Below are positions 2,223 to 61,680 of a stretch of 64,000 nucleotides of DNA, piece after piece. Source of the stretch: a virus; UHGV virus genome UHGV-1579991. The stretch is one strand, 5' to 3'. Each line of letters opens with the position of its first letter. The first letter of the stretch is position 1. The position numbers and the translations under genes are program-made. The notes under the pieces were generated by a model. That model was not told the DNA's origin. It did not search any database and saw nothing but the letters and a program-made list of their open reading frames with translations.

Positions 2223-2281
2223 TATAAAATATTGAGATATTCAATATATGTACATATAATACGAATATTCAAATTAAACAT

Positions 2282-13422: not shown

Positions 13423-14462
13423 GATTGCTGCACGAATTTTGAGAGCTCGAATGACAATGCGAGCATTGTTATGAATTGGTCAATTGACTGTTTAGACTCT
13501 ACACTGTATTTGTGAGCTGCAATGACAATGTCTCCAAGTCGTGCAACAAAACCAGGCGTATTCTTTGAGAGCTTTGCATAGCACCAATTTGCAAAGTCAG
13601 TTGAGAGAGCATTGATGACTTCAGTTTCACGACCTTTGTATTGTGACAATGTTTTGTAAAATTCACGCGGGTCTTTGCATGCGACAATGAAGTCATACAG
13701 TTCTTCAAACTTTGCTGACATGCCCTTTGTGACATGCTCAAGCGTTATATGACGCTCACCTTGATTGAAGACAAAGTAGCAAATGTTCAGAATTTTGCGG
13801 AAGTCTGGATAGTTATCTTGAATTAGCTTGATGAGCGCTTCTTTTTCAATGGTGCATTCATTTTCCTTCAAGATATTGTAGACGCGAACCATGCACTTCT
13901 TCATCAACTGTTCTGCAATATCATCAGAAAAGTCGAATGACAGCATTTTGAGACGAGATTGAGCAATTGATGCATCAATACGGTCTGGATAATTGCAAGT
14001 TGCAATGAAAAACGCAATGCCTGCAAACTCTTCAATGGTGCCTCGCAAAGCCATCTGGCTTTGTGTCGATAGATAATCCATTTCATCAAGCAGCACAACC
14101 TTTACGCCACTTGACGACAATGACATATGCTGACAGAATTCTGAAATTGTGTTGCGAACTGTGTCAATGCCAGAATTCTTTGAGCAGTTGATTTGCAGAA
14201 TTGAACGTCTATCAGTCCACTTCAATGCCAATGCTCTTGCTGCGGTTGTTTTTCCACTTCCTGGTGCTCCTGCGAACAAATAATTTTGCGGCTGACCATT
14301 AAATGCCGCAGCATAATCATCAGGCACAATTAACTCTTCGACTTTTGTTGGCCTGTAGCGTTCTAACCAAGTTCTATCTTTAAGGGATGCCATTTGTTGT
14401 TTGTTGATATATGTAAAAATATTGTACAACAATACTGTCATTTTTGCACAGCATGGCCGCAA
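13419..14462 (-). CDS. sliding-clamp loader subunit (AAA+ ATPase, RFC/gp44-like)
   Basis: 347 aa; Walker A (FAGAPGSGKTTAARALA), Walker B (VVLLDEMD), sensor-like SRL region. Confidence 0.7.
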   Translation of the reverse strand: MRPCCAKMTVLLYNIFTYINKQQMASLKDRTWLERYRPTKVEELIVPDDYAAAFNGQPQNYLFAGAPGSGKTTAARALALKWTDRRSILQINCSKNSGIDTVRNTISEFCQHMSLSSSGVKVVLLDEMDYLSTQSQMALRGTIEEFAGIAFFIATCNYPDRIDASIAQSRLKMLSFDFSDDIAEQLMKKCMVRVYNILKENECTIEKEALIKLIQDNYPDFRKILNICYFVFNQGERHITLEHVTKGMSAKFEELYDFIVACKDPREFYKTLSQYKGRETEVINALSTDFANWCYAKLSKNTPGFVARLGDIVIAAHKYSVESKQSIDQFITMLALSFELSKFVQQS

Positions 14463-15629
14463 TCGTACACAGGCACATAACCAGCGTCAAGCATTTGTTG
14501 TTCATCTACTTCTGCAGTATGCGCAGCATACAGTCGCTTCTTGTAATTCCACCAATGTTTTCTAATAGTCAATTTGTCATTGCATATGACAGGATTTTTT
14601 GACAAGTCTGTGCTATCTACACGTTCATTGCATAAATGCTGTCGTATGATTTCTACAACGTCATCAGGGTTATCCCAATCCCATATTGTAATGCATATGT
14701 AGCCTGCTGTAAGTGCTGCTTGAGTTTTTCTAAAATGTCTATCATTAGGAATTGGCAAATTGCGTTTAGATTTGCCAATTGCATATGCAAAGCCAAATGC
14801 AGCATTATGTGAAAACGATGGGTTGATTTCTATTAGTAGATGCTTATAATGCAAATCATAAGAAAATCTGCCAATATTGACATCATCAAATGTGCAATCA
14901 ATGTTAAGTCGTTGCAGCAAAAAATCATGCCACCAACGATTAACCGTTGTAATGGTGCGCCCATTAGCATGCCGACAACGCTCAGTCATAACAAACCAAG
15001 GTACACCATAGCGTTCAAGATTTGTTTGCATGCGTTTTGCAGTGCCACCATATTCATCACCGTATCGTAATCTGCGTGTATGAACTGCTTTTAATGGGTT
15101 GCCAGCAGAATTGCCATATCGTAGCATCTTTGTTTGCTGCGCTTTAGCAGTAATTACACCATGGTCAGGATAGTGTTCGCGTATTGTTTGCTGCACTTTA
15201 GTAGCATTCCATGTGCGATAGCCGTACTTGTGTAATTTTGTTTGCTGGGCTTTTTGCATGTTGTTATAATATGGGTCGCCATAGCGTTCTTCTTTAATTT
15301 TGCACATTAACTGTTGGTCGCCAAATGCATTGCCATATTTTGCAAGTTTTGTTGCCTTAAATTTAGTCATGTCGCCAAGCCCATTGCCATATCTTTCTCG
15401 TTTTGTTGCGACACCTTTGTTTGTAAATTCTTTTTAATTGCGCAGTGTTTTCAACACCATATTTACGCAAATTGCTTATACGACTGTTATATGTACGTTT
15501 GCAAATTGTGTATTGTGAGTAGCGTTTATGCTGAGGTCGTTCTTTAGACGCAGTTTGCAATATCACATCTCTTTCCTCTTCAAGTTCTTTTATGCGAGCT
15601 TCAAGAGCTTCTCCAGTTAATGGTTCCAT
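14438..15629 (-). pseudogene. frameshifted member of the homing-endonuclease-like paralog family
   Basis: Track ORFs 15363..15629 (coiled-coil N-terminus, LRKYGVENTAQLK) and 14438..15370 (YG repeats, nuclease-like domain, VYDCGH tail) are the two halves of one paralog in different frames. The second frame stays open upstream to 15433 (KEFTNKGVATKRERYGNGLGDM...), so the shift lies at the A5 run at plus 15429-15436. Confidence 0.6.
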
Positions 15630-25637: not shown

Positions 25638-25900
25638 ATGTAGAGATTTTTGTAGTTTGTATCAATTGCATTCTATATCAATTGCATCTTGTATCAAATA
25701 CATTATATTGATATATGATAATTGTACTACAAAAATCCCAAATTTGCACACTTTGATAATCAAAAGTGCAAACAAAATTCAAAGTTATATTGTACATCAT
25801 AAAGTGCAAATTTGCACTTTATGATGCTGCAAAATGTTTGCATAAAAAAATAAGCAGCTTAGATTGCTAAGCTGCTGTCATTGTATGTATGCAGTCACTG

Positions 25901-26437
25901 TCATTTGTAGTGTTCAGTTATGTATGCAGAGCATAGCAAAACAACTGATACACAAATGACAATGTATGTTGGCGTAATCAGTGTCACATTGAATAACAAT
26001 GCAGTCAATGCGCATACTGTTACTGATATGAGTGTTGAAATGAATGCAGCATATGCACTAAACTTGCTTTTTAACAAACGTTCGATGATATATGTTGTCG
26101 CAACAGACAGTAAGACTACACATGCAAATAACAACAGCCAAGTTGAGTTTGACGTTGTCGGCTCTTCAATAAACTGCAATGTTGCTGATGGCACTTCAAT
26201 ATTGTTTGATGCTTGTAATGTGCCACTTGCAGCATCTGCGTACATCACAGTTAAGTAGTGTCGTTGAATTTCTGCTGCGTCTACTTTATAGATTCTATGC
26301 CATGCAACATCTGATATGATGTATGTTGCAGCCATAAATGCAGCAATGCATAGCATATAAGAGCCAAACTTTGCAATCGGTTTCATGCAAATATATTTTT
26401 GTTTGTATATGTACATAAAAGAGCAAGTTCTCCACAT
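25901..26437 (-). CDS. hypothetical multi-pass membrane protein
   Basis: 178 aa with several hydrophobic stretches. Confidence 0.45.
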   Translation of the reverse strand: MWRTCSFMYIYKQKYICMKPIAKFGSYMLCIAAFMAATYIISDVAWHRIYKVDAAEIQRHYLTVMYADAASGTLQASNNIEVPSATLQFIEEPTTSNSTWLLLFACVVLLSVATTYIIERLLKSKFSAYAAFISTLISVTVCALTALLFNVTLITPTYIVICVSVVLLCSAYITEHYK

Positions 26438-26764
26438 TGAGAACTTGCTCAGCTGACCTGTTACCAGGTGAAAGCGTGGTGCAGCACCTTGTGCTGCAAT
26501 GGCTATGCTGCCATCGCCATAACGGGCTGAGCATTGCCCAGCATCATTACACGACCAGCTGCATTAAGCGTACGCTTTGCTTTGTTGAAAAATTTGCCAG
26601 TTATCTGGTATCTGCACATCTATTCAAGCGACCTACTATGCAATCAAATGCCTGTCGAGCCCAATGTTTGAGCAGTTGTTTGTCAGATGCTCAGCTGACT
26701 GCAGTCTTTCTGAGTGTATCAAGTTCAGCGATTCTGCATCTTTGCTAAATGGCAATGGTTCAGG

Positions 26765-26800
26765 TGGACTCGCCGAGAATCGAACTCGGGTCTTACATAG
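26765..26800 (-). other. tRNA-like fragment (T-arm plus acceptor 3' strand only)
   Basis: Minus-strand read CCGAG-TTCGATT-CTCGG-CGAGTCC-A is a canonical T-arm plus acceptor 3' strand, but I could not find a matching 5' acceptor strand, D-arm or anticodon arm before the next tRNA. Confidence 0.3.
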
Positions 26801-26845
26801 CGCATCCTTGACTTGGTCCTGTAAACAGGGTTGTCAACATGCATT

Positions 26846-26916
26846 GCAATACGACAGGACTCGAACCTGCGACCTCGGATTGGACGTCCGCGCTCTTACC
26901 GCTGAGCTACGTATTC
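26846..26916 (-). tRNA. tRNA, anticodon uncertain (possibly Gly-UCC)
   Basis: Minus strand: acceptor GAATACG/CGTATTG (G1-G72 mismatch), D-arm GCTC-AGCGGTAA-GAGC, T-arm GCAGG-TTCGAGT-CCTGT; anticodon stem irregular (4 bp), loop CGTCCAA. Confidence 0.5.
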
Positions 26917-27009
26917 TTATCAATTGACTGCACTGCAATGCAATCAATCGTGCCAATGATATTTGACACGCATAATTGCAGTTATGCGTAACAATTCAAA
27001 TGTCATTTG

Positions 27010-27082
27010 AGCCAACTGCAGGAATCGAACCTGTAACCTGCTGAGTACAAATCAGCTGCTCTACCAATTGAGCTAAGTTGGC
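27010..27082 (-). tRNA. tRNA-Thr (anticodon UGU)
   Basis: Minus strand: acceptor GCCAACT/AGTTGGC, D-arm GCTC-AATTGGTA-GAGC, anticodon stem GCTGA/TCAGC with loop TTTGTAC, T-loop TTCGATT. Confidence 0.75.
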
Positions 27083-27164
27083 ATAAAGTCGTTGGGCCAT
27101 TGCAACCCAAACCTATCATCTTTGCCTAACCAAAGATGCAAGCGCTCTCTTACACCACGACTTG

Positions 27165-27235
27165 TAGCCGAACTTGGAGTCGAACCAAGCTTTCGAGAAT
27201 GAAAATCTCGCGTCCTAACCGATAGACGAAACGGC
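27165..27235 (-). tRNA. tRNA-Glu (anticodon UUC), non-canonical acceptor stem
   Basis: Minus strand: D-arm GTCT-ATCGGTTA-GGAC, anticodon stem CGAGA/TCTCG loop TTTTCAT, T-arm CTTGG-TTCGACT-CCAAG; acceptor GGCCGTT/TTCGGCT has two U-U mismatches at its base. Confidence 0.5.
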
Positions 27236-27419
27236 CAAGAGCAGTTCAAGTCTGCAGCATTGAACTGCGGAAACAATGCCTGTACGGGCAACCAATTGTG
27301 CAGATACAGCGACATTGCAAAATCACACCGAACCAAGTTTGTGGCTCTTCTGTCTCATAAAAACAAGTAATCATTACACTTGGCACCAATGATTTTGATG
27401 TAAAAATCGGTGTGTTACG

Positions 27420-27504
27420 CGGAGAGTAAGGGATTCGAACCCCTGGTACGTTGCCGTACAGTGGTTTTCAAGACCACCGCCATCGACCGCTCGGCCAACT
27501 CTCC
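27420..27504 (-). tRNA. tRNA-Ser (anticodon UGA), type II
   Basis: Minus strand: acceptor GGAGAGT/ACTCTCC, anticodon stem GTGGT/ACCAC loop CTTGAAA, 16-nt variable arm, T-arm AGGGG-TTCGAAT-CCCTT. Confidence 0.75.
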
Positions 27505-27697
27505 ATAAAACATTGCATAAGCATTCTTATCTCTTGATGAGGCCAAGTAGCTAATTTGGCAAGTTTGTTATATCTATCGTGACTGTTGCAGTTTGTTGTC
27601 ACTCAATACACAAAACTTTCGAACATTCATTGACAACACTGCAATATCGCTTTTTAAGCTCAGCCATCAATGTATTTATGCAATGTATAACAATTCG

Positions 27698-27779
27698 TAG
27701 CCAAACCGGGACTTGAACCCAGACTCCTAATGGAACAACATTTTGAGTGTTGCGTGTCTACCAATTCCACCATTTGGCC
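27698..27779 (-). tRNA. tRNA-Leu (anticodon CAA), type II
   Basis: Minus strand: acceptor GGCCAAA/TTTGGCT, anticodon stem CAACA/TGTTG loop CTCAAAA, 13-nt variable arm, T-arm CTGGG-TTCAAGT-CCCGG. Confidence 0.7.
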
Positions 27780-27876
27780 ATTTGCAAATGCAAGCTGTTT
27801 CACAACTGTTTGCATTTGCATTTGCATTGTTTAACACACTAAAATATGATTCATCTAATCAAAAACCAGAGAATTG

Positions 27877-27949
27877 TCGAGAATGTGCGATTTGAACGCC
27901 AATTATACGTCCCAAACGTATCGTGTTACCGGATTACACTACATTCTCG
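27877..27949 (-). tRNA. tRNA-Pro (anticodon UGG)
   Basis: Minus strand: acceptor CGAGAAT/ATTCTCG, anticodon stem ATACG/CGTAT loop TTTGGGA, T-loop TTCAAAT with a weak 3-bp T-stem. Confidence 0.6.
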
Positions 27950-27956
27950 TTAATTG

Positions 27957-28027
27957 TTGAACTGTCTGGACTCGAACCAGAAATATATCATCCAAAGTGA
28001 TATGTGTTACCATTACACCACAGCTCA
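27957..28027 (-). tRNA. tRNA-Gln (anticodon UUG)
   Basis: Minus strand: acceptor TGAGCTG/CAGTTCA (one G-U), D-arm GTG-TAATGGTAA-CAC, anticodon stem TATCA/TGATA loop CTTTGGA, T-arm TCTGG-TTCGAGT-CCAGA. Confidence 0.7.
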
Positions 28028-28132
28028 GTATATAATGTATGCTTGTGTTATTATGTATATTTGTTAGTAATTATATGAATAATATACTACATTTATTTAT
28101 GATTTGCACCATATACTGCAACTTTGTATCAC

Positions 28133-34899: not shown

Positions 34900-35154
34900 C
34901 TAAAATGTTAACTGTAATGACTTGATATTGACGCATTCAATTTTTAACATGACAAGCTTATCATGTGCAGCCATTGCGTCATATTTGATGTTTGCAATTT
35001 CGAGCTTTTGTGCAATTTTGTATGCAGTGGCGCCATCAGTAGATATGCAGATGCAATTGCCAATGACAATATTTGCTGCATCTGTTATATTAACTTTGCA
35101 TGCATTATCATTGTTATCAATGACTTCTATGCATTTGATTGAGTTAAAGTCCAT
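34900..35154 (-). CDS. hypothetical protein
   Basis: 84 aa ORF; its start lies directly downstream of the promoter cassette at 35161-35230. Confidence 0.4.
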   Translation of the reverse strand: MDFNSIKCIEVIDNNDNACKVNITDAANIVIGNCICISTDGATAYKIAQKLEIANIKYDAMAAHDKLVMLKIECVNIKSLQLTF

Positions 35155-35160
35155 ATTGCA

Positions 35161-35230
35161 GAGGTTTAGTATATTTGACAGTATATTATTTATAGATATA
35201 TAATACTACATACTTGCAGATTTTGCACTT
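35161..35230 (-). promoter_or_regulatory. putative late-type promoter cassette (TATAAATA box on the minus strand)
   Basis: Minus-strand read GTGCAAAATCTGCAAGTATGTAGTATTATATATCTATAAATAATATAC...; shares the core attatttatagatatataatactac...attttgcac with 51127-51200; sits 10-70 nt upstream of the 34900..35154 start. Confidence 0.45.
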
Positions 35231-35361
35231 AGTTGATAAATAATTTATAAACATTTTCACAAACTTTTAACAGCTCTTTCGCTTATGAAAACTACTCAAC
35301 TCTGGTTTGAACGCCAGCAGTCAATCGCGGGGGGGCTCTTCGTGCTCCTGATTACATAGAT

Positions 35362-36054
35362 GTGCGGTTTACACTCGTAGATGATATGAGCATACCTTGT
35401 GCATATATGCCAAACATATATGTGTTTGCTGATGGCAATGAGTATGCAATATCTCCAATAGGTTCACAATCACTTGATTATGACGGCTCATGTATTGTAC
35501 GTATTACCAAGTCAGACTGGATTGAAATGTTTGGCGCTGGTGTTACACAAGGCAGACTTAAATTTGGCTATGGCACAAATGAGCTTGAATTTTGTGAATT
35601 GATAAGCGCTGCAACTGCTGAAGTCAAATTCGTTATTGGTTATGAACAAAGCCAGTCTGTCACTGCAACATTTAGTGATTTGCTGCATAATCCACTTGTC
35701 GCAACAAACAACAATTCTGCACAAGCAACAATTACATATACATTTAGTCATGCGACATTTAGAACAGCAGCATTTAAGATTATCGGTAATGTGACATTAT
35801 TACCAGGCGGTGATGTAAGTAACACAGCTACAATTCTTGCGCCTAATTATAGTACAACAATTAAGTACACTACGTCATCAACGCCAAAACTATTTGAGCA
35901 TTCAATGACATTTGAGCGTAACAATGAAATGCTTGAGTATGTTGGCACTGAAGTAGACAGACATGCGTATTGTCAAATGAGACGTAGAACTACGGGCTTA
36001 ACTGTATATTGTCATGTGTATATTGATGATAGCATGCTTAATATGATGAATTGA
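35362..36054 (+). CDS. hypothetical protein (GTG start)
   Basis: 230 aa plus-strand ORF beginning at GTG 35362; one of the few plus-strand genes, convergent with the large minus-strand gene. Confidence 0.45.
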   Translation: MRFTLVDDMSIPCAYMPNIYVFADGNEYAISPIGSQSLDYDGSCIVRITKSDWIEMFGAGVTQGRLKFGYGTNELEFCELISAATAEVKFVIGYEQSQSVTATFSDLLHNPLVATNNNSAQATITYTFSHATFRTAAFKIIGNVTLLPGGDVSNTATILAPNYSTTIKYTTSSTPKLFEHSMTFERNNEMLEYVGTEVDRHAYCQMRRRTTGLTVYCHVYIDDSMLNMMN

Positions 36055-39452: not shown

Positions 39453-42400
39453 TCAATTACATGCTGAATGTCCGCAGTTGGTGCATCGAACACAGCCGTC
39501 AAACTTGACCATGTCACCACCGCATTCAGGACACTTTGCATACATCTTTGAGCCATCTTGAATGTGTAGTTTCAATGCGCGACCAATTGCTTTGCAGAAT
39601 GTGCCAACAGATGCAAAGCTTTTTGCAGTTTGGTCGACAATTTCACCAAGGTCGATGCCATTGCGAAGCATCGTTGAGTACAGTCGAGTAATTGTTTGCT
39701 GCTCATCTGAACCAAGACGTTCTGAGATATTGTCATAGTGTTGCAAGAATGACAAATTATCACCAAGCTTGTAGTGCTTCTTATCAGTCTTTGTGATTGT
39801 CGTTTGTTCAATGCCTTGCAACTTGTCAAATTCGTCTTTGTCAAGTTCAAATGCAAAGATTTCATAGGGTCGACCATCATCACAACCTACAAGAATACAC
39901 CACTTACGCTTATACACTGATACACAATACACTGCAGCAGGCAATACAGGTTTTCGTTTTGAGCGATGACCAGACTGCAAGACATGCGACTTATCCTTAG
40001 ACTGCTTATCATCTTTTACGAGAACACCTGCACGTGAGCCATCTCGATAAATTGTGCAACCCTTGCAGCCAGATTTCCATGCAGTCAGATAAATTTCACG
40101 AACAAGCTCTTTTGTTGCAGAGTTTGGAATATTGACTGTTACAGAAATTGATGAGTCAATGTACTTTTGCAACGCGCCTTGCAGTTTAACCTTGCCAATC
40201 CAGTCAACATCTTCAGTAGTTGCCTTATAGTATGGTGATTGAACAAGCAATTCATCAATGACTGCTTGCGAAGCATTTGACAACCAAGCTTTGATACGAG
40301 ACATTTCTGCTTCTGACCATTCAATGCCAGTATCTTTGACAAGGGTGAATTTGTCATCACCAAGCTGCACTCGTTTGCAAATCCACTGCATCAATGGGTA
40401 GTGAACTACAGCGTATTCAATGAACTTGTCACCAGTAGTCTCATCAATGAAGTTGATGTCTGCTTCATTATCAACTGCAGTAGGCTTTCGACGACGTTTG
40501 TGCAGTGGCATAAAAACAGGTTCAATGCCAGAAGTTGTCTGAGTCATCAAAGCTGTGGTGCCAGTTGGCGCAATTGTTGTTGTGTTGATGTTTCGACGAC
40601 CAAATTGTTGATAAGTTGTGATGTGCTCATCATCAATCAGTTCAGATAACATACGCTGAATGAACTTTGACTGCACATCTGTGTCATAGTCGAATATTGC
40701 AAATGAGCCACGAATCTCTGCCAAGTCAATTGACGCTTCATAAGTCGCCTTTACAAGCCATTGTTGCATAGTGACTGCGAAGTCAATTGACTCTTGTGAA
40801 CCATAGCGCAAGCCAAGCATTGCCATTGCATCGCCAAGTGCAAGAAAGCCCATGCCATATCGACGAGTATTTGTCAATTTGTCATAGACTTTATGCCACA
40901 AGTCAAGCTCAGTTTTCTTAATGTCAAATGATTCTTTGTCTGATTCAACCTTTGCAATGATTCGTTGAACTGCTTCAATTTCAAGCTGCACAAGGTCATC
41001 CATGATGACTGCACAGTCATATGTATCTTTGTAGAATGCTTCAAAGTCAAATGATGCATCAGCAGTCCAAGGATTAAGCACATATGCAGTCAAATTGCGA
41101 TGTGATAAAATGCAGCTTGCATATGCTGCAAGAGGCTGTTCACCGCACTGCCTGTTGTTTACAAATACTTGCATATGTCTGTCATTTGTATCATTGACAG
41201 CGTCAAATGACCCTACAAAAAAGTTGTGATAATCATCTACAGTGCCATTATACACATCTTCTACACCATCAAGTTCAACAGTGTGTACCCTATGATTGTA
41301 GTAATCTGCAAACTGCTTAAACTTTCTGTATGACGCATGAATAGCAGCGTCAACATTGTTAGATTTGCATTCATTTGCAAATTCTTCATAATTTGGTCGT
41401 TTGCCAAGTTTTTGCTTTGCTGCAGTATATACAAGCACTTGTTCTTTAGACCATTTTGCTTGCTGAGCTGCGTGGCCGCATTCGGCAGAACAATATGCAA
41501 CTTCTCTATAAAACCAGTGCGCCCAAAATTCAGAGCCGCAATGTTCGCAAATACGTTTAACATACACTTGTTTGTCAACAAATTTAGTGTCATAGCCCAT
41601 ATTGCGAACTTTAATTGCTGTTGCTATGCATCTGCTATCAATGCCAACTAAATCAGGATATTTAACATTAGCGCGCGTTGCACAATGACTTAAAAATGCA
41701 TCAATAGAGCCAAATGTTTCTACTAATTTATTGTACCTGTAGCCAGACCATGCAACAGTATTATTGCCTGGCGCATAGCGCATATAGTATTCTAATTCTT
41801 TGCGACTAAGGCCTCTTCCAACTTTTGCAGTGCATTGCGTAACATAGTCTACAATTGATTGCACAGTTGTATCAATATCATATCTGCCATTACGTTCACC
41901 AGAAGTAGATGCACTCATTTTAGCAGAATACTGTGCAAAACGTTCTGCATTTGCTTTAATTTTGTATATTGGATTGTTAGTGCCTCTACGTTCAAGTGCA
42001 TGTAATGCATCATGCTCTTTTTTGCTTAGTACTTGTAAGTTATTTGGGTCATTGTTTAATGAATTGCCATCGATATGATGCACTACTGTGTGTGTAGCAT
42101 CAAACTGTTCAGCATGACAGTATTCTGCTATTAAACGATGCTCAAACTTATATACACCATTATTCAACACTGCATAATATGGTGCAGATTTGCTATTTGT
42201 TTGATAGCTAAGCACTTCATCAAATGAACATTGTTGTCTTGCAATAATTGCTAAGCTATCACCATGCTGTAATTGTCGTGCTTCTTTGTATGTGCCATCT
42301 GTTAACTTAAACTTGTGATTACCTGTGCAACGAATAACATCACCAGAATCAAGTGTAACTTTGTATATTTGCACATTTGAGCCTGTTTTGCGTGGATGCC

Positions 42401-43439
42401 GCATTTTGCGTACAACTACATTATTGTTGTCATCATAGCAATACACATTAACATCATCGCCAATATCTGCAAGTTCACGTATTGTCATTGTTTGTCTGCC
42501 ATCAGCAAGCATAACTTTAGTGCTGCCAACAATGCATGGATTTGTTGAGCGCTCTTCATACATTTTACCGTATGCTTTCGAGTTCGACTCTTCCATAATG
42601 CGGTCCCAAAAGAACACGCCGGGTTCTGCAGATGCCCATACATTGTCAACAATTTTGTCAAATAATGCTTTTGCATCTGATGTCTTATGCAGCTCTTGGC
42701 CATCAGAGCCACGCCAAATATGTTCAAACTGCTGTTCTGCAAGCACTGCACGCATAAATGCATCAGTAAGCTTGATGGAAATGTTTGCACCTGTGATTTT
42801 TGTCAAGTCTTTTTTTGCGTCAATGAACTTATCTGCATCAGGATGCTCAATTGACAATGACAACATCAATGCGCCACGCCTGCCATTTTGTGCAACTTCT
42901 TTTGTCGATGTTGAAAAGCGTTCCATAAATGACACGACACCAGACGTCGTAATAGCACTGTTATGTACTTCTACGCCTTCTGGGCGAATATGCGACAAAT
43001 CATGGCCAACACCACCACGACGTTTCATCAACTGAACTTGCTCTTCATCTGTTTTGAAGATGCCGCCATATGAATCTGCATCATTGCCTATTACATAGCA
43101 ATTTGACATTGATGTGTAACCGCCAAGACCGATACCAGCCATTGGAGAACCACCAAGTACAAATCGCTTAAATGGCTCAAGCAAATATGCAAGTCGCTCT
43201 TTTGACAATACACGTTTGCCTGTCTGTTCTTCAAATTGTGATTCTATACGGTCAAATTCATTGACCCAGCGCTCATGCATATCAGACAATGAGTGTTCAT
43301 ACAAATTGTCTTTGTCATGATGCAAGTATTTTGACATGCATATGTCAGCAGCCATTGAGTCGCCCGTAAATTCATGCGTCAGTGTAGTGTGCACTTCAGC
43401 ATATTCAGGCGACCCAATTTGAATGGGACGTTTTGTCAT
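39453..43439 (-). CDS. nrdJ: ribonucleotide reductase, class II (NrdJ)-like, intein-containing precursor
   Basis: Track ORF 39453..43499; likely start at ATG 43439 (MTKRPIQIG). Exteins reconstitute the RNR active-site motif NP-CGEQPL...AYASC; C-terminal Cys-rich zinc-ribbon-like tail. Class assignment is tentative. Confidence 0.7.
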   Translation of the reverse strand: MTKRPIQIGSPEYAEVHTTLTHEFTGDSMAADICMSKYLHHDKDNLYEHSLSDMHERWVNEFDRIESQFEEQTGKRVLSKERLAYLLEPFKRFVLGGSPMAGIGLGGYTSMSNCYVIGNDADSYGGIFKTDEEQVQLMKRRGGVGHDLSHIRPEGVEVHNSAITTSGVVSFMERFSTSTKEVAQNGRRGALMLSLSIEHPDADKFIDAKKDLTKITGANISIKLTDAFMRAVLAEQQFEHIWRGSDGQELHKTSDAKALFDKIVDNVWASAEPGVFFWDRIMEESNSKAYGKMYEERSTNPCIVGSTKVMLADGRQTMTIRELADIGDDVNVYCYDDNNNVVVRKMRHPRKTGSNVQIYKVTLDSGDVIRCTGNHKFKLTDGTYKEARQLQHGDSLAIIARQQCSFDEVLSYQTNSKSAPYYAVLNNGVYKFEHRLIAEYCHAEQFDATHTVVHHIDGNSLNNDPNNLQVLSKKEHDALHALERRGTNNPIYKIKANAERFAQYSAKMSASTSGERNGRYDIDTTVQSIVDYVTQCTAKVGRGLSRKELEYYMRYAPGNNTVAWSGYRYNKLVETFGSIDAFLSHCATRANVKYPDLVGIDSRCIATAIKVRNMGYDTKFVDKQVYVKRICEHCGSEFWAHWFYREVAYCSAECGHAAQQAKWSKEQVLVYTAAKQKLGKRPNYEEFANECKSNNVDAAIHASYRKFKQFADYYNHRVHTVELDGVEDVYNGTVDDYHNFFVGSFDAVNDTNDRHMQVFVNNRQCGEQPLAAYASCILSHRNLTAYVLNPWTADASFDFEAFYKDTYDCAVIMDDLVQLEIEAVQRIIAKVESDKESFDIKKTELDLWHKVYDKLTNTRRYGMGFLALGDAMAMLGLRYGSQESIDFAVTMQQWLVKATYEASIDLAEIRGSFAIFDYDTDVQSKFIQRMLSELIDDEHITTYQQFGRRNINTTTIAPTGTTALMTQTTSGIEPVFMPLHKRRRKPTAVDNEADINFIDETTGDKFIEYAVVHYPLMQWICKRVQLGDDKFTLVKDTGIEWSEAEMSRIKAWLSNASQAVIDELLVQSPYYKATTEDVDWIGKVKLQGALQKYIDSSISVTVNIPNSATKELVREIYLTAWKSGCKGCTIYRDGSRAGVLVKDDKQSKDKSHVLQSGHRSKRKPVLPAAVYCVSVYKRKWCILVGCDDGRPYEIFAFELDKDEFDKLQGIEQTTITKTDKKHYKLGDNLSFLQHYDNISERLGSDEQQTITRLYSTMLRNGIDLGEIVDQTAKSFASVGTFCKAIGRALKLHIQDGSKMYAKCPECGGDMVKFDGCVRCTNCGHSACN
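41148..42536 (-). mobile_element. intein (Hint domain plus HNH homing-endonuclease domain) inside the RNR gene
   Basis: In-frame 463-aa insertion from Cys at 42536 (CIVGSTKVMLADG) to ...VFVNNRQ at 41148, followed by the +1 Cys of CGEQPL. Contains HNH motif HHIDGNSLNNDPNNLQVLSKKEHDALH and intein block-F-like VYNGTVDDYHNFFVG. Confidence 0.75.
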
Positions 43440-43504
43440 TGTAACAGTGCATTTAAGTGTTTTAACAGTTTTATGTATAAATTGTACAACAATGGGCAAA
43501 ATTT

Positions 43505-43564: not shown

Positions 43565-43870
43565 TTAGTATTGCTTGTATTGTATCTGCATTGCATCATA
43601 CAAAAGCAGTCGAACATCTTTGTTCATTGTAAGCTTTGACATTGTAGTTTCATGTTTGTCTTTGCCAATGTTAAAATTTACAATGGTGCTACCTACTGCA
43701 GACATCAATTGCAGAAAATTCAACTTTGTCATTGCTTTGCCATTATAACGTATCTGCTGTTGTTTGATAAGTTCGTCCATGTAGTCAAACAGCTGCCAAT
43801 TTTCTACATTGTTAGCTTTGACCGCTAATTCAAGTGTTTGACGATACTTGCTAAGCTTGTTTGTTGCCAT
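43565..43870 (-). CDS. hypothetical protein
   Basis: 101 aa ORF. Confidence 0.45.
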   Translation of the reverse strand: MATNKLSKYRQTLELAVKANNVENWQLFDYMDELIKQQQIRYNGKAMTKLNFLQLMSAVGSTIVNFNIGKDKHETTMSKLTMNKDVRLLLYDAMQIQYKQY

Positions 43871-44348: not shown

Positions 44349-44540
44349 TGTAGTAGAGGTTAAAATATATTGATATATAATAATTATACTACAAAGTTGC
44401 CAGATTTGCACCAGAATGTATAACAAGTTTGCATAAAAAAGTTTTTACATAAAATGGCAAACAAAAAACAAGCAGACTGCAATTGCAGCCTGCTTGCGCC
44501 AAAACAGAAAAAGATGATAACTTAACCCAAAAACCTAACT

Positions 44541-46890: not shown

Positions 46891-47050
46891 AGGGATGGCG
46901 AACTGTACACATTGTACACATTGTACACACTTATATTGTATGTGTTTGTATATGTATTTTAACAGGCATTAGCAAACAATACAAAAATGCAAAATGAAAG
47001 TGGCTCAGATGTATATCTGGGCCACTTTCATTTGTCATATACGTTGTCTA

Positions 47051-50196: not shown

Positions 50197-50222
50197 AGGA
50201 AGAGCTCAATTGAGCTCTTCCT
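50197..50222. terminator. 26-bp perfect palindrome; putative terminator
   Basis: aggaagagctcaattgagctcttcct; between the start of 49723..50178 and the stop of 50253..51125; shares the AGCTCAATTGAGCT core with the palindrome at 54522-54549. Confidence 0.5.
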
Positions 50223-50252
50223 GATAGTCAACTTGATAAACCTCTACGAAAA

Positions 50253-51125
50253 TCAAGCTTGACTACTTTTGTTGATTACGAGATACTTGTATCGTTCTTT
50301 GATTGTGATGTTCTTTGATTTTGCCGCCTCGATTTCTTTGCGTTCCTTGGAGGAATAGTTGAACTTAATGTAGTCGGAGAACAATTCGGGCTTATCTGCT
50401 ACTTCATTGTTCTTGACTTCTTTTACAAGAGTTTGCTGAAACTCATTGATTGTAGTGAAACCAAGGAATGACTGGAACTTGTTAAGCGGAAACAGCTTAT
50501 CTGTGTTGTCCTCGAATGTCGGGAATTCGTCGGAATACGTAATTTCGATTTGGTCTACGAAATATCTAAGTTTTTCCCAAGGTTCCTTGCCAATGAGGAG
50601 AATGTTCTGATGGTCAAGTTTTTCCTCGAACATTTCCAGGAGACATTCGTATGATTTTACGAGACGAACTCCAGGATATGTAATTGATGCAATTGAACGA
50701 GGTTTGTGAGTCGTCTTGACTTCTTTATTGTATGTTTCCTCGTCGATGCAATAGATGTATCGCTTGACCTTGTCGTATTCTTTCGGAAGATAGTTGTTGT
50801 CAAGGAATTGCTTGTCAACTACAATGAAACTGAAAGGATAGAGTTCATTGAATCGTTGACGAAGCTGTTCTGTTGCAAGGAAGAAATGCGAGCCATCTTT
50901 TGCTGCAAATTCCATATTTGAATTGCATCCTGCATATGCAATGTATCTGTTTCGCTTCCATTTGAGGAATCGACTTACCAGGTTCTTTTCGAAGATGTCC
51001 TTGTATTTGAAGTAGGTGTCCCAGTACTCCTTAACAATTCCATCTTGCATTTTTCTTGACAATTTTGAATTGTCTACCGGCCTATCAGTAAAAACTGATG
51101 GTTTGTTTGCGTTGTATAATCCCAT
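50253..51125 (-). CDS. hypothetical protein (compositionally distinct)
   Basis: 290 aa ORF; codon usage looks richer in G/C-ending codons than its neighbours (judged by eye); preceded by the promoter cassette and the leader AACCTCTACTACA-ATG. Confidence 0.5.
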   Translation of the reverse strand: MGLYNANKPSVFTDRPVDNSKLSRKMQDGIVKEYWDTYFKYKDIFEKNLVSRFLKWKRNRYIAYAGCNSNMEFAAKDGSHFFLATEQLRQRFNELYPFSFIVVDKQFLDNNYLPKEYDKVKRYIYCIDEETYNKEVKTTHKPRSIASITYPGVRLVKSYECLLEMFEEKLDHQNILLIGKEPWEKLRYFVDQIEITYSDEFPTFEDNTDKLFPLNKFQSFLGFTTINEFQQTLVKEVKNNEVADKPELFSDYIKFNYSSKERKEIEAAKSKNITIKERYKYLVINKSSQA

Positions 51126-51126
51126 T

Positions 51127-51200
51127 GTAGTAGAGGTTTGTTAATTTATTATTTATAGATATATAATACTACGACAATGCAAATTTTGCACTGTCGTAGC
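51127..51200 (-). promoter_or_regulatory. putative late-type promoter cassette (TATAAATA box on the minus strand), duplicate of 35161-35230
   Basis: Minus-strand read GTGCAAAATTTGCATTGTCGTAGTATTATATATCTATAAATAATAAATTAACAAACCTCTACTACA-ATG; shares the core attatttatagatatataatactac with 35183-35208. Confidence 0.5.
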
Positions 51201-51220
51201 ATAAAAGTTTACACATTTTT

Positions 51221-51559
51221 TTACAAATGCGAGAACAACTTATTCGTAACTCGTTCAATTGCAAATTCAACACCATATTGCAACAACTGTTCAGTGCTAA
51301 ATGCTTTTGCTGCATGCGCAGGCGCAATATGCTTTGTCTGTGCATACAAAGTCCAAGTATCAGTTGGCCTGTCATAAGTAACTGTCAGTCTGTATGTTTG
51401 CAACACAAACTCTTGACTAAAGTATTCTCTTCGCCAAAACTCTGGTTCTGCAATATGCAAATCAAGCCAAGCAAACTCAAACAGAATTTGTTTAAGTTGA
51501 CGTTGATGCTTACGTTCAGCACGATATGTGCCACTAAACAGATACTTGATGATGTTCAT
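51221..51559 (-). CDS. hypothetical protein
   Basis: 112 aa ORF. Confidence 0.4.
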   Translation of the reverse strand: MNIIKYLFSGTYRAERKHQRQLKQILFEFAWLDLHIAEPEFWRREYFSQEFVLQTYRLTVTYDRPTDTWTLYAQTKHIAPAHAAKAFSTEQLLQYGVEFAIERVTNKLFSHL

Positions 51560-51578: not shown

Positions 51579-52565
51579 TTATACTACAGCAGACAATTGT
51601 TGCAATGTTGACTGCATAACGTCATCAGTTACAAATAATTCGTTTTCAGTGAACACATAAAATTTTAAGCCATGTTGTTTTGCATATTGCACTGCTGCAG
51701 TAGATTTTTTACGTACTGCATCACAAAATGCATATGCACATGGCTTAATTTCTATTAGCAATCCATATGTAGGCAAATAGAAATCTACAATGTATTTATG
51801 ATGCCCATTGTATGGCACTGCAACAGTTTCATATTCATATTGAATGCCAAGACGTTCTAATGTCAATACAAAATGAGTTTCATAACTACTGCGTGTATGC
51901 AATTGCGTTGGCATTGCAATAGAATGACATTTTACACACTGCTGAACAAGTACTAATGCGCGTTTGCCCTTACCACAGTTTTGCATTTTGCCATTTTGCA
52001 TTGCTCGTGCAACACCTGCAGCAACGTGCATAGCAAATGATGGGTCTTCTTTATATTTTCGTCGTAACCCTGCAGATACACGAGACTTAAAGTCTGGGTC
52101 TTCTGCATAGCGTCTGTTCAAACCAGCAGTTACTCGTTGGCTAAATGTCGGGTCATTCACTACAGCAACCATTGCTTTTCGCGTGCCAATTGACACATTT
52201 TTACATCGAGTTTCATCTCGCCATACTTTAGACATAGATGCTGTCCAGCGTTTAACATATTCAGGGTCATCAAACGCATGTTTTGCGCGACAGCATTTAC
52301 AAACATTATTAAAGTAGCCATATCTAATGCCTATGTATGCTATAGCAGCCCCACAATATTTGCAATGTTTTGCTGCGTCATCATACAATAGATATTTGTC
52401 ATAGTAGTCTTGTTCATGCATATTAACAGATTGTAATGCTCTGCGTATTGTGCATGATGTACACCATTTGTTAAGCTCTGGTACATAATACTCATAACGT
52501 TGCTGCCCCTTTGGTGTTATTCGTGCAAGTCTTTTATATTCCGGATGATATGTAGGATTTTTCAT
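51579..52565 (-). CDS. homing-endonuclease-like paralog (divergent N-terminus)
   Basis: 328 aa; C-terminal nuclease-like domain (YIVDFYLPTYGLLIEIKP) as in the other paralogs; N-terminal Cys-rich region with repeated DPxFKxRVxAGLxRxY motifs. Confidence 0.45.
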   Translation of the reverse strand: MKNPTYHPEYKRLARITPKGQQRYEYYVPELNKWCTSCTIRRALQSVNMHEQDYYDKYLLYDDAAKHCKYCGAAIAYIGIRYGYFNNVCKCCRAKHAFDDPEYVKRWTASMSKVWRDETRCKNVSIGTRKAMVAVVNDPTFSQRVTAGLNRRYAEDPDFKSRVSAGLRRKYKEDPSFAMHVAAGVARAMQNGKMQNCGKGKRALVLVQQCVKCHSIAMPTQLHTRSSYETHFVLTLERLGIQYEYETVAVPYNGHHKYIVDFYLPTYGLLIEIKPCAYAFCDAVRKKSTAAVQYAKQHGLKFYVFTENELFVTDDVMQSTLQQLSAVV

Positions 52566-57104: not shown

Positions 57105-57354
57105 ATGATATGATATATATCAAGTGCAGCAATTGAACAGATTGCAAAAACAATGCTCAGACTTTACAGTCTGAGCATTGAACGACTAAATTGTACATCT
57201 TCCACAATGATATAGAATCATTGTTAATATTGTATTGATATTGTACAACATGCATTGCATATTTGCAATGATACAACATGCAAAATGCACTTGCACTTTG
57301 ATGCAAAGTACTGCGTACACAACATGCATTGCATATTTGCATTTTGACGCAATG

Positions 57355-58468: not shown

Positions 58469-59530
58469 TTATTTTGTATTGCTACGCGTCATTGTTAAAT
58501 GACCGCAATCATACACATCAACTTCTGTTTTGCCAAGCATACATGTATGACAATTTATTTTGAAATCTGCTGCAGTGTAATCAGGATAGTTTAGCGGAGA
58601 TTCTTTTGACAAATCAATTTCAATTGTGTCAGTAGTTTTAAGTTGTTCAGTGCCTGCAATGATATCTGCAATAAGATTGATAACTTCTTCTTGTGAATCC
58701 CAATCAAACACAGTTATGCAACGATAGCCTGCATCAAGTGCAAGTTTTGTTTTGTTGTAATGGTATTGAGCACCAATAACATTGTTGTCTTTTGCTCGAC
58801 CAGTTAAATATGCAAAACTAACAGTGCAGTTGTGCGTAACTGTTGGACAAATTTCTATAAGTAACTTTGCAGGCTCATACTGCAAATCATATGTTTGATT
58901 ATTGATGTTAAACTCGTACTGTGTATCAATTGCCAACTGTCGTAATAACGCATCATGCCACATCATATTACATTTAGAAATTGTTTTGGATGACAATCTG
59001 CATTGCGGCAATTGACATGGCCAATCTACGCCGTACATTTGTTGTGTTGTTTGACGCATTTTGTTAACATCACCAAAATGATTGCCATATCGATGCTCTT
59101 TGGTTTTAAGCGACTGCTCAATATTGACATTGCCTACACAACCATAACGTTCAAGTTTTGTTGCAGCAGTTTTGCTAACATCACCATGCCCATTGCCAAA
59201 TTTGGCGACTTTAGTTGCAAGTATTTTATGACTTGGGCCAAATGCATTGCCATACAATTCTTGTTTAGTCGCAAGCATTTTGTCGATATTACAACCAGCG
59301 CCATAAGTGTTATGCATAGTTTGCATACGTTGTCGAATAAATTTTGGCACAGATAAAGGACTTTCTACACCATATTTGCGTAAGCAACTGATTTTGCATG
59401 CGTACTTTTGCTTGATGACAGAATGTGCATTTCGACGTCCTATGTAAGTGTTTTCTGATGTAGCAGCAAGCTCTGCATCTCTAAGAACTTCAAGTGCAGC
59501 AATTCGTGCTTCAATTTCTTCAGATGTCAT
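58469..59530 (-). CDS. homing-endonuclease-like paralog
   Basis: 353 aa; coiled-coil N-terminus (EIEARIAALEVLRD), YG-x-x-x-G-D repeats, LIEICPTVTHN...GYRCITVFDWD nuclease-like domain, VYDCGH tail. Confidence 0.55.
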   Translation of the reverse strand: MTSEEIEARIAALEVLRDAELAATSENTYIGRRNAHSVIKQKYACKISCLRKYGVESPLSVPKFIRQRMQTMHNTYGAGCNIDKMLATKQELYGNAFGPSHKILATKVAKFGNGHGDVSKTAATKLERYGCVGNVNIEQSLKTKEHRYGNHFGDVNKMRQTTQQMYGVDWPCQLPQCRLSSKTISKCNMMWHDALLRQLAIDTQYEFNINNQTYDLQYEPAKLLIEICPTVTHNCTVSFAYLTGRAKDNNVIGAQYHYNKTKLALDAGYRCITVFDWDSQEEVINLIADIIAGTEQLKTTDTIEIDLSKESPLNYPDYTAADFKINCHTCMLGKTEVDVYDCGHLTMTRSNTK

Positions 59531-59876: not shown

Positions 59877-61592
59877 TCAAATCCAGCCGTAGTCGCTGTG
59901 GATAGCGAAGGTGAGGTAAGCCAACTCGGGATACATACCCGTCTCCGCGAGAGCGTAATCCGACTCAATCAGCAACTTAGGCGCTGCTGTACCTTCGGCT
60001 GTTAATTCCACACTTGATGCAAGGTCATATGGCATGAATACGCATCCCTGGTTGACATTCTCTACGTCAACGCCGTCAGCAGTTTTGTTCGTACGAAGAA
60101 CGAGAACAGTGTTATCGTTCAGCGGCTGCTTAGGATTGCAATAGATTTTAATGCCAGCAAGGTCACCTGCATAATACAGGTTCTTGTTGTCCTGTACCAG
60201 CGTATTGTCAAGAGCTGCAACAAAGTTCTTCTGAGCCTTAATTGCAACCAAGGCAATCGTATTGACCACGGCAGCATCACCGGCACCGAAACGCGACAGG
60301 TTGCCAATGATTGCCGAAGCAGCCAGGATACGAGTTGCGATACGAGCCTGACGGGTAATCTGGTTCTCAGCCGAGCTGTTCGATTCAGCGTTCGGAACCA
60401 TACCGAATTCAGCCGTACGGTCTACACCCATCTTGTCGACAAATGCAGGAGCCTGGAATTCTGAGAATGCCTTGGCGGTTGAACCAGCGTAGCCAATGTA
60501 CAAGTTCAGGTTGTAGCCCTGAGCAGCCAACAGCTGAGCATGTGTCGTAACACCAAGTGCACGCATGCGCTTCAGACCATTGTCGTTAATTGACTGCGTG
60601 ATTTCATTCTGCATTGCATTCTTGATGATTGCAACTGCATCCAAACCGCGAGCACGGAGGTCCTTAACCTGTCGACGAGTCAGAGCACCCCAAGTCTGGT
60701 ACGTCTTAACTTCGATAGCCTTTGAGAAGGTGCGGAGCTCCAGCATGTTCGGGTTGCCAGCCTCAGCCTCAGAACGAGACATTGGGTTGCCGTCAATGTC
60801 ATCCATTGCAGCGAAGCCGTGGATGTGTTCGTCACCAGCCGAAACCAGGTCGAACATAACCTCAGTCATGCCAGTCAGCATGTCAGTTACAGCACCTGCA
60901 GCGTCAACCGAGTAGATTTTCGATGCAGCCATTGCAACATCAGCCAACGACTTGTCAGGAGCAACTGTCATTGCGCCACCTGCGCCTACAGTGTACACGC
61001 CCTCATTGCGAACTACGAGGTAGCCTGCAACACGCGATACCTGTACAAACGTTACCTTGGCAGCAAGCTCACCGGCAGCTGAACCGCCGATGTACAGAAC
61101 TTGACCCTTCTTGAGGCCATGAACCATTGTCTGCGAAGCAACATTGTACAACTCCTTCCACTTGATGAGGAAGTAACGAGGACCCTTGGCTGCATTCAAC
61201 TTGCCACCGCCATATACGTAGTCTACATAGTCCAGCTGAACCAGCGGGCTGTAAACAGGAATGGTCGGGAGCAGGTCGAACAGAATCGTGTTGGCTGCGA
61301 TGTTCATGTTCAGAGCCAGAACATTGGCAGCTACATCTATTGAACCACGCTTACGCGACGGGTCATGGAACTGTGCTTGCGTACCTGGGTCAGCAGGGAA
61401 AGCGACCGGACCTACGCCATTGAGATTCTGCGAATACGTCGACTCAAACGACTCGTTCATATACTGAACGTTCTGAGCGATTGATGCGAGCAGATACTTC
61501 TTAGCGGGCGAGAGCTTGGAGTCAAACGACTCATCAAGAACAGGACCCCACTTTTTCAGCAATGCATCAATCTGTGTACGTTTTGCGTTCAT
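59877..61592 (-). CDS. putative major capsid protein
   Basis: 571 aa ORF in a locally GC-richer stretch with distinct codon usage (highly expressed gene signature, judged by eye), followed by a strong intrinsic terminator; no catalytic motifs. Functional call is inference, not a recognised motif. Confidence 0.4.
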   Translation of the reverse strand: MNAKRTQIDALLKKWGPVLDESFDSKLSPAKKYLLASIAQNVQYMNESFESTYSQNLNGVGPVAFPADPGTQAQFHDPSRKRGSIDVAANVLALNMNIAANTILFDLLPTIPVYSPLVQLDYVDYVYGGGKLNAAKGPRYFLIKWKELYNVASQTMVHGLKKGQVLYIGGSAAGELAAKVTFVQVSRVAGYLVVRNEGVYTVGAGGAMTVAPDKSLADVAMAASKIYSVDAAGAVTDMLTGMTEVMFDLVSAGDEHIHGFAAMDDIDGNPMSRSEAEAGNPNMLELRTFSKAIEVKTYQTWGALTRRQVKDLRARGLDAVAIIKNAMQNEITQSINDNGLKRMRALGVTTHAQLLAAQGYNLNLYIGYAGSTAKAFSEFQAPAFVDKMGVDRTAEFGMVPNAESNSSAENQITRQARIATRILAASAIIGNLSRFGAGDAAVVNTIALVAIKAQKNFVAALDNTLVQDNKNLYYAGDLAGIKIYCNPKQPLNDNTVLVLRTNKTADGVDVENVNQGCVFMPYDLASSVELTAEGTAAPKLLIESDYALAETGMYPELAYLTFAIHSDYGWI

Positions 61593-61680
61593 GATTGAAT
61601 TTGTTTGTTATTGAAAGTGAAACATATATTTCTGTATAATATGTATAGAACTACTGACATTGATTGAATTGTGAAAATGG

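Follow-up and report, generated by a model that had tools for sequence, protein, structure and literature searches.

Two intergenic sites on the minus strand of the virus genome UHGV-1579991 carry nearly the same short sequence, one directly upstream of an open reading frame (ORF) at 34900-35154 and the other upstream of an ORF at 50253-51125. This raises the question of what the shared sequence does, and in particular whether it is a late promoter of the bacteriophage T4 type, as its A/T-rich box TATAAATA has suggested. The stretch of DNA analysed, termed the window, is 64,000 nucleotides long. Each of the two loci is probably a tandem promoter cassette: a sigma-70-type promoter from a 15-copy family, termed class A, is followed by a T4-late-type box, termed class B, and the whole behaves much like the PeSL (promoter-early stem-loop) elements, which are mobile regulatory cassettes of T4-type phages (Arbiol et al. 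2010, PMC2839356; Comeau et al. 2014, PMC4122927). The loci are a special subtype of this phage's standard promoter cassette. They are not a new kind of system, but ordinary regulatory DNA in the form of a genuine duplicated cassette.

The exact 25-mer GTAGTATTATATATCTATAAATAAT is found twice on the minus strand of the window, at 35185-35209 (locus 1) and at 51148-51172 (locus 2). With up to three mismatches these are still the only two matches, and 100 dinucleotide-shuffled sequences contain none; the near-identical core described in the initial annotation is therefore real. Upstream of the 25-mer both loci also have GTGCAAAAT in common, and AAACCTCT is found at both, 5-7 nt 5′ of the ATG. 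When anchored and compared over 105 nt, the two loci are 63% identical, the top value among all pairs of the class A family. The properties of the cassettes and of the ORFs that follow them are as follows.

35222-35227, minus strand: TGCAAA, the -35-like element of locus 1 and one of the 15 class A copies, kept in five relatives
35200-35205, minus strand: TATTAT, the -10-like element of locus 1, exactly 16 nt 3′ of TGCAAA
35187-35194, minus strand: TATAAATA, the T4-late-like class B box of locus 1, unchanged in all six lineages sampled
35160-35167, minus strand: leader module AAACCTCT of locus 1, the 3′ edge of the cassette, with no Shine-Dalgarno (SD) sequence; the ATG is at 35152-35154
35235-35244, plus strand: inverted copy GATAAATAAT at locus 1, 41 nt 5′ of the plus-strand ATG at 35286 and at the 5′ edge of the conserved cassette
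34900-35154, minus strand: 84-aa ORF, the putative gene of cassette 1
51185-51190, minus strand: TGCAAA, the -35-like element of locus 2, a match to the class A family
51163-51168, minus strand: TATTAT, the -10-like element of locus 2, after a 16-nt spacer
51150-51157, minus strand: TATAAATA, the box of locus 2
51130-51139, minus strand: leader module AAACCTCTAC of locus 2, 4 nt 5′ of the ATG (51123-51125)
51169-51199, minus strand: 31-nt stem-loop CTACGACAGTGCAAAATTTGCATTGTCGTAG of locus 2, which overlaps the -35 box and directly follows the stop codon of 51221-51559
50253-51125, minus strand: 290-aa ORF, the putative gene of cassette 2, with homologues down to 43% identity, none of them annotated
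50238-50247, plus strand: inverted copy of AAACCTCTAC (GTAGAGGTTT on the minus strand), 5 nt past the stop codon of the 290-aa gene
50197-50222, minus strand: terminator-like hairpin GGAAGAGCTCAATTGAGCTCTTCC followed by TTTC, which ends the 290-aa transcription unit (z score -3.15 for the 82-nt stretch)

At both loci TATAAATA starts 5 nt past the -10 element, over the transcription start predicted for the class A promoter. Counted from its first base, the ATG is 40 nt away at locus 1 (35154) and 32 nt away at locus 2 (51125); the distance of 35-45 nt proposed initially is roughly right for the former and slightly long for the latter. The bare 8-mer TATAAATA is found nowhere else in the window, which is also what a window-wide motif search predicts from chance, with two matches observed, both of them focal, and 2.0 expected. 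It is the extended cassette that exceeds chance (two against none in shuffles), and the 8-mer alone therefore carries no statistical weight. The motif ATAAATAAT occurs three times, each time inside one of the two cassettes. A chance resemblance between two A/T-rich intergenic stretches would be in keeping with the base composition and with the frequency of the bare 8-mer, but this explanation is refuted: the 25-mer has no match in the shuffles even at three mismatches or fewer, both copies fit the 15-member family described below, and the block is conserved in diverged relatives.

The stem-loop at locus 2 has a 17-bp stem, and the minimum free energy of the 106-nt stretch at 51120-51225 is -26.5 kcal/mol (z = -5.8); the class A copy at 43508 has a 25-bp stem (z = -8.5). 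An Rfam scan returned seven tRNAs only, and no known RNA family at the loci. The 290-aa ORF ends with the inverted AAACCTCTAC and the terminator-like hairpin, and thus appears to be a self-contained transcription unit. The 10-nt inverted repeat AAACCTCTAC/GTAGAGGTTT flanks this ORF in its 5′ leader and 3′ trailer and is identical in three genomes; the pair might join the two ends of the mRNA or mark a gene cassette.

The class A pattern, TGCAA[AG]-N16-TA[CT][ACT]AT, is found 15 times on the minus strand of the window and not once on the plus strand, whereas 200 shuffles contain 0.5 matches on average and never more than 2. Of the spacers tried, from 12 to 20 nt, just the 16-nt spacer is populated (15 minus-strand matches); the other lengths give 0-1 matches on the minus and 0-2 on the plus strand. 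Read as nTGCAA-N17-TAYNAT, class A has sigma-70 geometry, with the TG of the -35 element at its canonical place. The spacer ends in GTTG at its 3′ end, or in GTAG in four copies that include both focal loci. An ATG that opens an ORF is present 17-83 nt downstream in 12 of the 15 copies, and the remaining three are tandem duplicates. Repeat finding also placed locus 2 with at least 10 other intergenic sites (families D2, D6 and D13). The closest sibling cassette is

44383-44410, minus strand: TGCAAA-16-TATAAT with the AACCTCTACTACAATG 3′ module, as at locus 2

and some class A copies carry an AACCTCT module. Beyond the 15 copies in 64 kb, further class A copies occur elsewhere in related contigs. 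Two tandem pairs are found on the minus strand, at 57240-57295 (28 nt apart) and at 25789-25816 and 25721-25748 (68 nt apart). At the 48759 site, related contigs have either two class A copies (L122) or one (L123), a copy-number variation consistent with slippage or recombination between cassettes.

Among the genes that follow class A copies are those for a gp44-like clamp loader, both topoisomerase II subunits, NrdA and an NTP-transferase-like protein, as well as several small ORFs. No class A copy precedes the capsid gene. In T4, the clamp loader, topoisomerase II and NrdA functions are of the early/middle class. The initial annotation had proposed a duplicated promoter cassette before 34900-35154 and 50253-51125, and in this it is borne out by the repeat and by membership of both loci in the class A family. 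It had also proposed that both genes are late-expressed. This does not follow, since a complete class A promoter, TGCAAA-N16-TATTAT, of the family that precedes replication and nucleotide-metabolism genes, is found directly upstream of the box and had been overlooked. Judged by these motifs, late-only expression of both genes is unlikely, and early/middle expression, or tandem early/middle and late expression, would be more likely.

Three other readings of the repeat were rejected. The Bacteroidota primary-sigma motif (TTG-N17-21-TAnnTTTG) has 13 matches in the window, 7 on the plus and 6 on the minus strand, mostly intragenic and none at the two loci; being neither enriched nor strand-biased, it was rejected as the signal. 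A plus-strand reading of the repeat as TTG...nAnnTTTG was rejected because of its 14-nt spacing and because it is antisense to every gene. A dimer operator at TGCAAA...TTTGCA was also rejected: the spacing of the half-sites varies from 0 to 7 nt across copies, which suits a hairpin over a rigid dimer site.

The relatives of UHGV-1579991 consist of two 175-kb IMG/VR contigs, 3300045988_149023 and 3300045988_152288, which are ∼95% identical, several read-archive assemblies that are 99-100% identical, and more diverged lineages. At locus 2, contig 152288 and the assemblies ERR1136811 and ERR1999775 are the same as the window. Contig 149023 differs there at about 10 positions in 60 nt and reads TGCAAA-ttttgcactgtcgttg-TAATAT-ATACATATATAAT, which resembles the family consensus; the adjoining gene is 99% identical in protein, and the site keeps class A and a consensus-type class B box. 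In diverged relatives (77-89% protein identity) TGCAAA-16-TATTAT-ATATC-TATAAATAAT is intact. The 77%-identity lineage (L130) has TGCAAA-16-TATTAT-ATATCTATAAATAATAAA at locus 2 and has kept AAACCTCTAC, together with a hairpin of different stem sequence, AACAGCGATGCAAATTTTGCATCGCTGTT. At locus 1 of the 89%-identity lineage (L136), GTAGTATTATATATCTATAAATAATATA is kept, and the spacer and leader differ. Since a block of 22-28 nt is kept across diverged relatives, it is under constraint as a unit. Further away, a 52%-identity homologue has TGCAAA-16-TATTAT-tttCATATAAA at locus 2, and in homologues of 50% and 47% identity a sigma-70-like promoter remains (TGCATT-16-TACAAT and TTGACC-16-TAATAT, respectively) and the exact box is lost. 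The predicted sigma-70-type promoter is thus the more deeply conserved part of the cassette.

In T4 itself, late promoters have TATAAATA at positions -13 to -6. Relatives of T4 have drifted from this consensus, with CTAAATA in Aeh1 and a variable T at -13 (PMC1524935). A relaxed form of the box, TA[CT]A[ATC]ATA or TAYAHATA (class B), has 20 matches on the minus strand of the window, of which 14 are strictly intergenic and two effectively so, in a sequence that is 7.9% intergenic DNA. The plus strand has seven matches, two of them intergenic. Class B forms are mostly TACATATA or TATACATA, and two of the copies that stand alone are of particular relevance.

61640-61647: TATACATA, upstream of the gp23-like capsid gene
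2251-2258, plus strand: TACATATA, 23 nt before the ATG of the T4-type large terminase gene

Stand-alone class B boxes are also found before a 1068-aa ORF, a 531-aa ORF and the tRNA cluster, and a CATATA-type sequence is present 2-6 nt past the -10 element in most class A copies. In a direct reading, 14 of 16 positions agree between the capsid upstream sequence TCTATACATATTATAC and TCTATAAATAATATAC of locus 1. The capsid, gp2-like and prohead-protease genes of Chryseobacterium phage MA9V-2 have TATAAATA, TACATATA and TATACATA upstream, with weak statistics in an A/T-rich genome. Because class B stands alone before capsid and terminase genes, it is likely a late-type box, and because TATAAATA is at chance frequency and confined to two sites, it is not the general late signal of this phage. 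Class B would thus probably be the late-type box of this lineage, with the focal TATAAATA a rare variant. A T4-late-like box, as first described, is therefore plausible for the degenerate class, which is intergenic and precedes capsid and terminase genes, but the exact TATAAATA is absent upstream of those genes in the window, where the relaxed TAYAHATA is found instead, and is not the phage's late consensus.

These data bear directly on the proposal that the functional element at both loci is a T4-type late promoter, in which a gp55-like sigma, together with gp33 and the clamp, recognises TATAAATA at -13 to -6, both genes being late and TGCAAA and TATTAT incidental. In its favour, the box agrees with the T4 consensus at every position (PMC1524935). 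Six lineages have it unchanged at locus 1, the 77%-identity lineage has retained it at locus 2, and it remains intact in contig 152288 where the -10 element is damaged. Related boxes stand alone before capsid and terminase genes, and the inverted GATAAATAAT faces a plus-strand gene that has no class A promoter. We nevertheless consider this proposal distinctly unlikely. TATAAATA occurs just twice in 64 kb, as expected by chance, and capsid and terminase have TATACATA and TACATATA instead. Both loci have a complete, rigidly spaced class A promoter of the kind found before replication genes, homologues of 47-52% identity keep the sigma-70-like promoter and lose the box, and contig 149023 is without TATAAATA at locus 2. 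In T4 relatives, moreover, late promoters are found only 5′ to late-gene orthologues, and novel ORFs have early promoters (PMC1524935). In the wider clade, every T4-like 'group 2' jumbo phage encodes sigma factors and gp33 (PMC7824862). Pfam and PHROGs searches with ∼60 ORFs of the window revealed no gp55, gp33, gp45, MotA or AsiA, which says little because the window represents about one third of the genome.

The position of the box raises a second question, namely whether there is a single promoter at each locus. The block that follows the -10 element (ATATCTATAAATAAT here, ATCAACATATAAT elsewhere) could then be a start-site or initially transcribed region, a 5′-leader element that aids SD-less translation or stability, or an operator through which a phage regulator controls both ORFs together. 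That the box overlaps the predicted class A +1, with a C/T-A step ∼5-9 nt after the -10 element in most class A copies, is in keeping with this reading; the A/U-rich leaders may matter where no SD sequence is present anywhere; and ATTATATATCTATAAATAAT is an imperfect palindrome in which 8 of 10 pairs match in a direct reading, although this is not significant for a sequence of A and T only (p ∼0.05). The conservation of the 22-28-nt block as a single unit fits as well. However, the box class is found without a TGCAAA or -10 partner before the capsid, terminase, 1068-aa and 531-aa genes and the tRNA cluster, and neither its distance to the -10 element (2-6 nt) nor that to the ATG (∼13-60 nt) is constant. 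A single promoter appears unlikely.

The tandem cassette also shows signs of plasticity at its edges. About 35 kb of the window can be compared with relatives, and five structural differences are found, three of which adjoin a cassette. A 76-aa zinc-ribbon-like ORF, present in contig 149023 and L136 and not in the window, sits exactly between AAACCTCT and the 84-aa gene. On the other side of cassette 1, the divergent plus-strand ORF 35362-36054, which is present as originally reported, is replaced in contig 149023 by an unrelated 216-aa gene and reduced in L136 to a remnant, with a deletion breakpoint 17 nt upstream of TGCAAA that adjoins the inverted GATAAATAAT. This inverted copy points toward the plus-strand ORFs, which are without a class A promoter. 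The third difference is the replacement in relatives of the ORF 43565-43870, which is bounded by the stem-loop and promoter at 43508. The two remaining differences have no adjoining cassette. One is in the intein region of NrdA, which differs in contig 149023; the other is a 328-aa endonuclease gene at 51579-52565 on the minus strand, found only in the window and in 100%-identical assemblies and absent from both 95%-identical IMG/VR contigs.

Several side observations concern these regions. The plus-strand region 35286-36054 begins with a conserved short leader ORF, MKTTQLWFERQQSIAGGLFVLL..., that has a run of seven G residues (GGGTGGG in contig 149023), and a variable beta-rich ORF comes next in a different frame, with 230 aa in the window and contig 152288, an unrelated one of 216 aa in 149023 and a remnant in L136; the gene may be hypervariable and act in host interaction, or may be prone to frameshifting. 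The NrdA region spans 39453-43499 on the minus strand, and an intein with an HNH endonuclease interrupts this large subunit of ribonucleotide reductase, especially at 41147-42310. The product of 51579-52565 matches a PHROG Holliday-junction resolvase/endonuclease and, weakly, Pfam Phage_endo_I and a TnsA-like family, and the gene probably represents the insertion of a mobile endonuclease. Only L129, L137 and L138, which are independent metagenome contigs, have a genuine contig end at or close to a cassette: L129 (OGNF01023980.1) starts inside the 25-mer, and the other two end at the same point in the plus-strand leader by cassette 1. This suggests that the repeat, or population heterogeneity there, breaks assemblies. 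An IMG/VR scan with TGCAAA-N9-13-GTTGTACAAT gave, among the matches listed, mostly chance matches across unrelated contigs, and yielded extra pieces of both related contigs.

Another reading is that the repeat is first of all a site of recombination, or the trace of a mobile gene cassette of the PeSL or moron kind, with promoter-like features that are secondary. There are indels at both edges of cassette 1 and beside the cassette at 43508, patchy replacement at locus 2 of contig 149023, and assemblies that break within or beside a cassette; in addition, the 290-aa gene has its own promoter and terminator and a 10-nt inverted repeat on both sides. This is improbable as the primary role. Strict strand bias, the rigid 16-nt spacing and the essential core genes downstream argue for transcription, no recombinase is associated with the cassettes, and neither the intein nor the endonuclease gene, which make up two of the five structural differences, is beside a cassette. 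As in phage morons, the 290-aa ORF has its own predicted promoter and its own terminator hairpin, but it is present in all relatives sampled, syntenic down to ∼50% identity, and resides in a lytic T4-like genome, not a temperate one.

The closest known counterpart is the PeSL. Both are dispersed, short composite intergenic cassettes with a sigma-70-like -35/N17/-10 promoter, a leader and a start codon, and in both the copies share enough sequence to recombine; the stem-loop that PeSLs have directly before the promoter is seen here at locus 2 and at the copy at 43508. The ∼17-nt spacing between -35 and -10 is found at both loci in the nTGCAA reading and in all 15 copies, and 15 dispersed copies in 64 kb are likewise PeSL-like. 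In the small sample of five structural differences, small-ORF insertions, deletions and replacements adjoin the cassettes in three cases, a plasticity of cassette edges of the kind described for the PeSLs of T4, RB49, KVP40 and relatives (PMC4122927). Cassettes of the window differ from PeSLs, which have TTGACA or TTTACW, in their TGCAAA -35 element. They have no SD sequence, with the start context ACAATG and AAACCTCT in its place, and a stem-loop is present at locus 2 and not at locus 1. Many copies precede core replication genes and are not confined to hyperplastic regions, a T4-late-like box lies past the -10 element, and the phage is outside the Tevenvirinae.

The cassettes can also be set beside the T4 promoter classes. 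The A/T box of 8 bp, which is the same at both loci, and the related box class without a -35 partner before capsid and terminase genes are T4-late-like, but the exact consensus is found only twice, not at recognisable late genes, and is nested just past a complete sigma-70-type promoter, whereas the T4 type has no -35 element. Likeness to T4 early/middle promoters is seen in the host-type -10 (TAYNAT), in the conserved upstream box that starts with TGC and in the placement before replication and nucleotide-metabolism genes; the TATTAT -10 is shared with the middle-type cassettes of nt-1. T4 middle promoters have a MotA box, (a/t)3TGCTTtA, centred at -30 and ∼12 nt from the -10 element. TGCAAA, at the canonical -35 position with a 16-nt spacer, does not have the MotA-box arrangement.

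A probable layout and mode of use can be proposed for the tandem cassette, read 5′ to 3′ on the minus strand. At locus 2 only, the stem-loop would end the upstream transcription unit. The sigma-70-type promoter (TGCAAA, a rigid 16-nt spacer ending in GTAG, and TATTAT) may be used by RNA polymerase with a primary-type sigma, either the host's or an RpoD-like one of the phage, with a start ∼7 nt past TATTAT before or around the time of replication. Five nt on, over the predicted start, TATAAATA, a variant of the usual TACATATA/TATACATA, may be usable as a -35-less late-type promoter by a gp55-like factor. An A/T-rich, SD-less leader ending in AAACCTCT and the ATG follow. With a class A promoter and a late-type box, both ORFs may be made from tandem promoters. 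The 25-nt identity would be explained by membership of the same conserved subtype of the 15-copy family together with exchange of sequence patches between copies, and the coincidence of short homologies with breakpoints of ORF gain, loss and swap in relatives would represent PeSL-like behaviour.

Some observations weigh against this interpretation. Each element has one natural exception: at locus 1 of contig 152288 a 4-nt deletion turns the -10 element into TATTAA with the box kept, and at locus 2 of contig 149023, which reads TAATAT-ATACATATA, the box is ACATATATA/CATATATA in place of TATAAATA. TGCAAA matches TTGACA at only three of six aligned positions. The nearest isolates by capsid mostly infect Bacteroidota, with host promoters of the form TTG-N19-TAnnTTTG, which are not enriched here. 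Locus 1, in a divergent region with no co-directional gene upstream, has no stem-loop or significant leader fold (z = +1.1). The class B-like sequence at a variable 2-6 nt after class A may be a start-site or leader element and not a second promoter. The link with recombination is only suggestive, since the events are few (five) and ORF-sized indels must end in intergenic DNA. Finally, while the family, its geometry and bias, the conservation and the indels can be read directly from the genomes, we infer promoter activity, timing and a recombination mechanism from them.

The genome is that of a phage of roughly 175 kb that is distantly T4-like and belongs to the PAU/PTm1/MA9V/Lak-related branch, not to the Tevenvirinae. 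No close isolate is evident, as a 22-kb megablast query had no match among INPHARED phages; the capsid proteins nearest to that of this phage share 26-37% identity with it and come from Chryseobacterium phages MA9V-1/2, Sphingomonas phage PAU, Tenacibaculum phages PTm1 and pT24, and Lak megaphages. Almost all genes are on the minus strand. No SD sequence is found before any gene of the window, and starts are typically ACAATG. The two hallmark structural genes are

59877-61592: gp23-type major capsid protein
2282-4273, plus strand: T4-type large terminase

and the other recognisable genes encode both topoisomerase II subunits, the gp44-like clamp loader, an NAD-dependent ligase, NrdA with its HNH intein, DHFR and a PNK-phosphatase. 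Most remaining ORFs of the window have no family match.

Seven tRNA genes (Gly, Thr, Glu, Ser, Leu, Pro and Gln) are located at 26412-28027 on the minus strand, with class B boxes upstream of the cluster at 28052-28059 and at 26406-26413; ARAGORN calls a permuted tmRNA at 26412-26854, without Rfam confirmation. Four paralogous minus-strand genes with weak DUF7487 matches (948-2222, 14438-15370, 58469-59530 and 61681-62970) contain repeats of 54 nt (18 aa) with the pattern ...K(R/K)YGN... (families D3-D20); they are scattered between core genes and adjoin the terminase, clamp-loader and capsid genes. They look like free-standing homing-endonuclease-like genes. Other repeats include a tandem array with a 12-nt period at 63747-63999, with at least 13 overlapping copies up to the window end (family D1), a minus-strand unit of ∼34 nt, tcaaaacaattttatattgttttgcattttgca, repeated at least twice at ∼7400-7472 before the ATG at 7372, and gtgtacaat, present two to three times at ∼46891-46925 on the minus strand before the ATG at 46890.

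For an uncultivated phage with mostly unannotated proteins, the analysis provides a concrete and testable map of putative promoters. With the 15 rigidly spaced TGCAAA-N16-TAYNAT promoters and the separate TAYAHATA class, dozens of uncharacterised ORFs could be given a temporal class, and in practical terms the repeat appears to break short-read assemblies at both loci. The PAU/PTm1/Lak-related lineage, too, may share the logic of T4 late promoters and an exchange of ORFs through cassettes of the PeSL kind. A more tentative suggestion, which we regard as possible rather than probable, is that TATTAT-ATATC-TATAAATAAT is a dual-class promoter, with primary-sigma and gp55-type promoters nested within 20 bp, and that TAYAHATA is the late consensus of the whole PAU/PTm1/MA9V/Lak-related branch. 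If true, this would open late transcription to sequence analysis for the first time in phages whose hosts are SD-less and probably of the Bacteroidota type, and would place cassette-driven ORF shuffling far beyond the classical T-even group.

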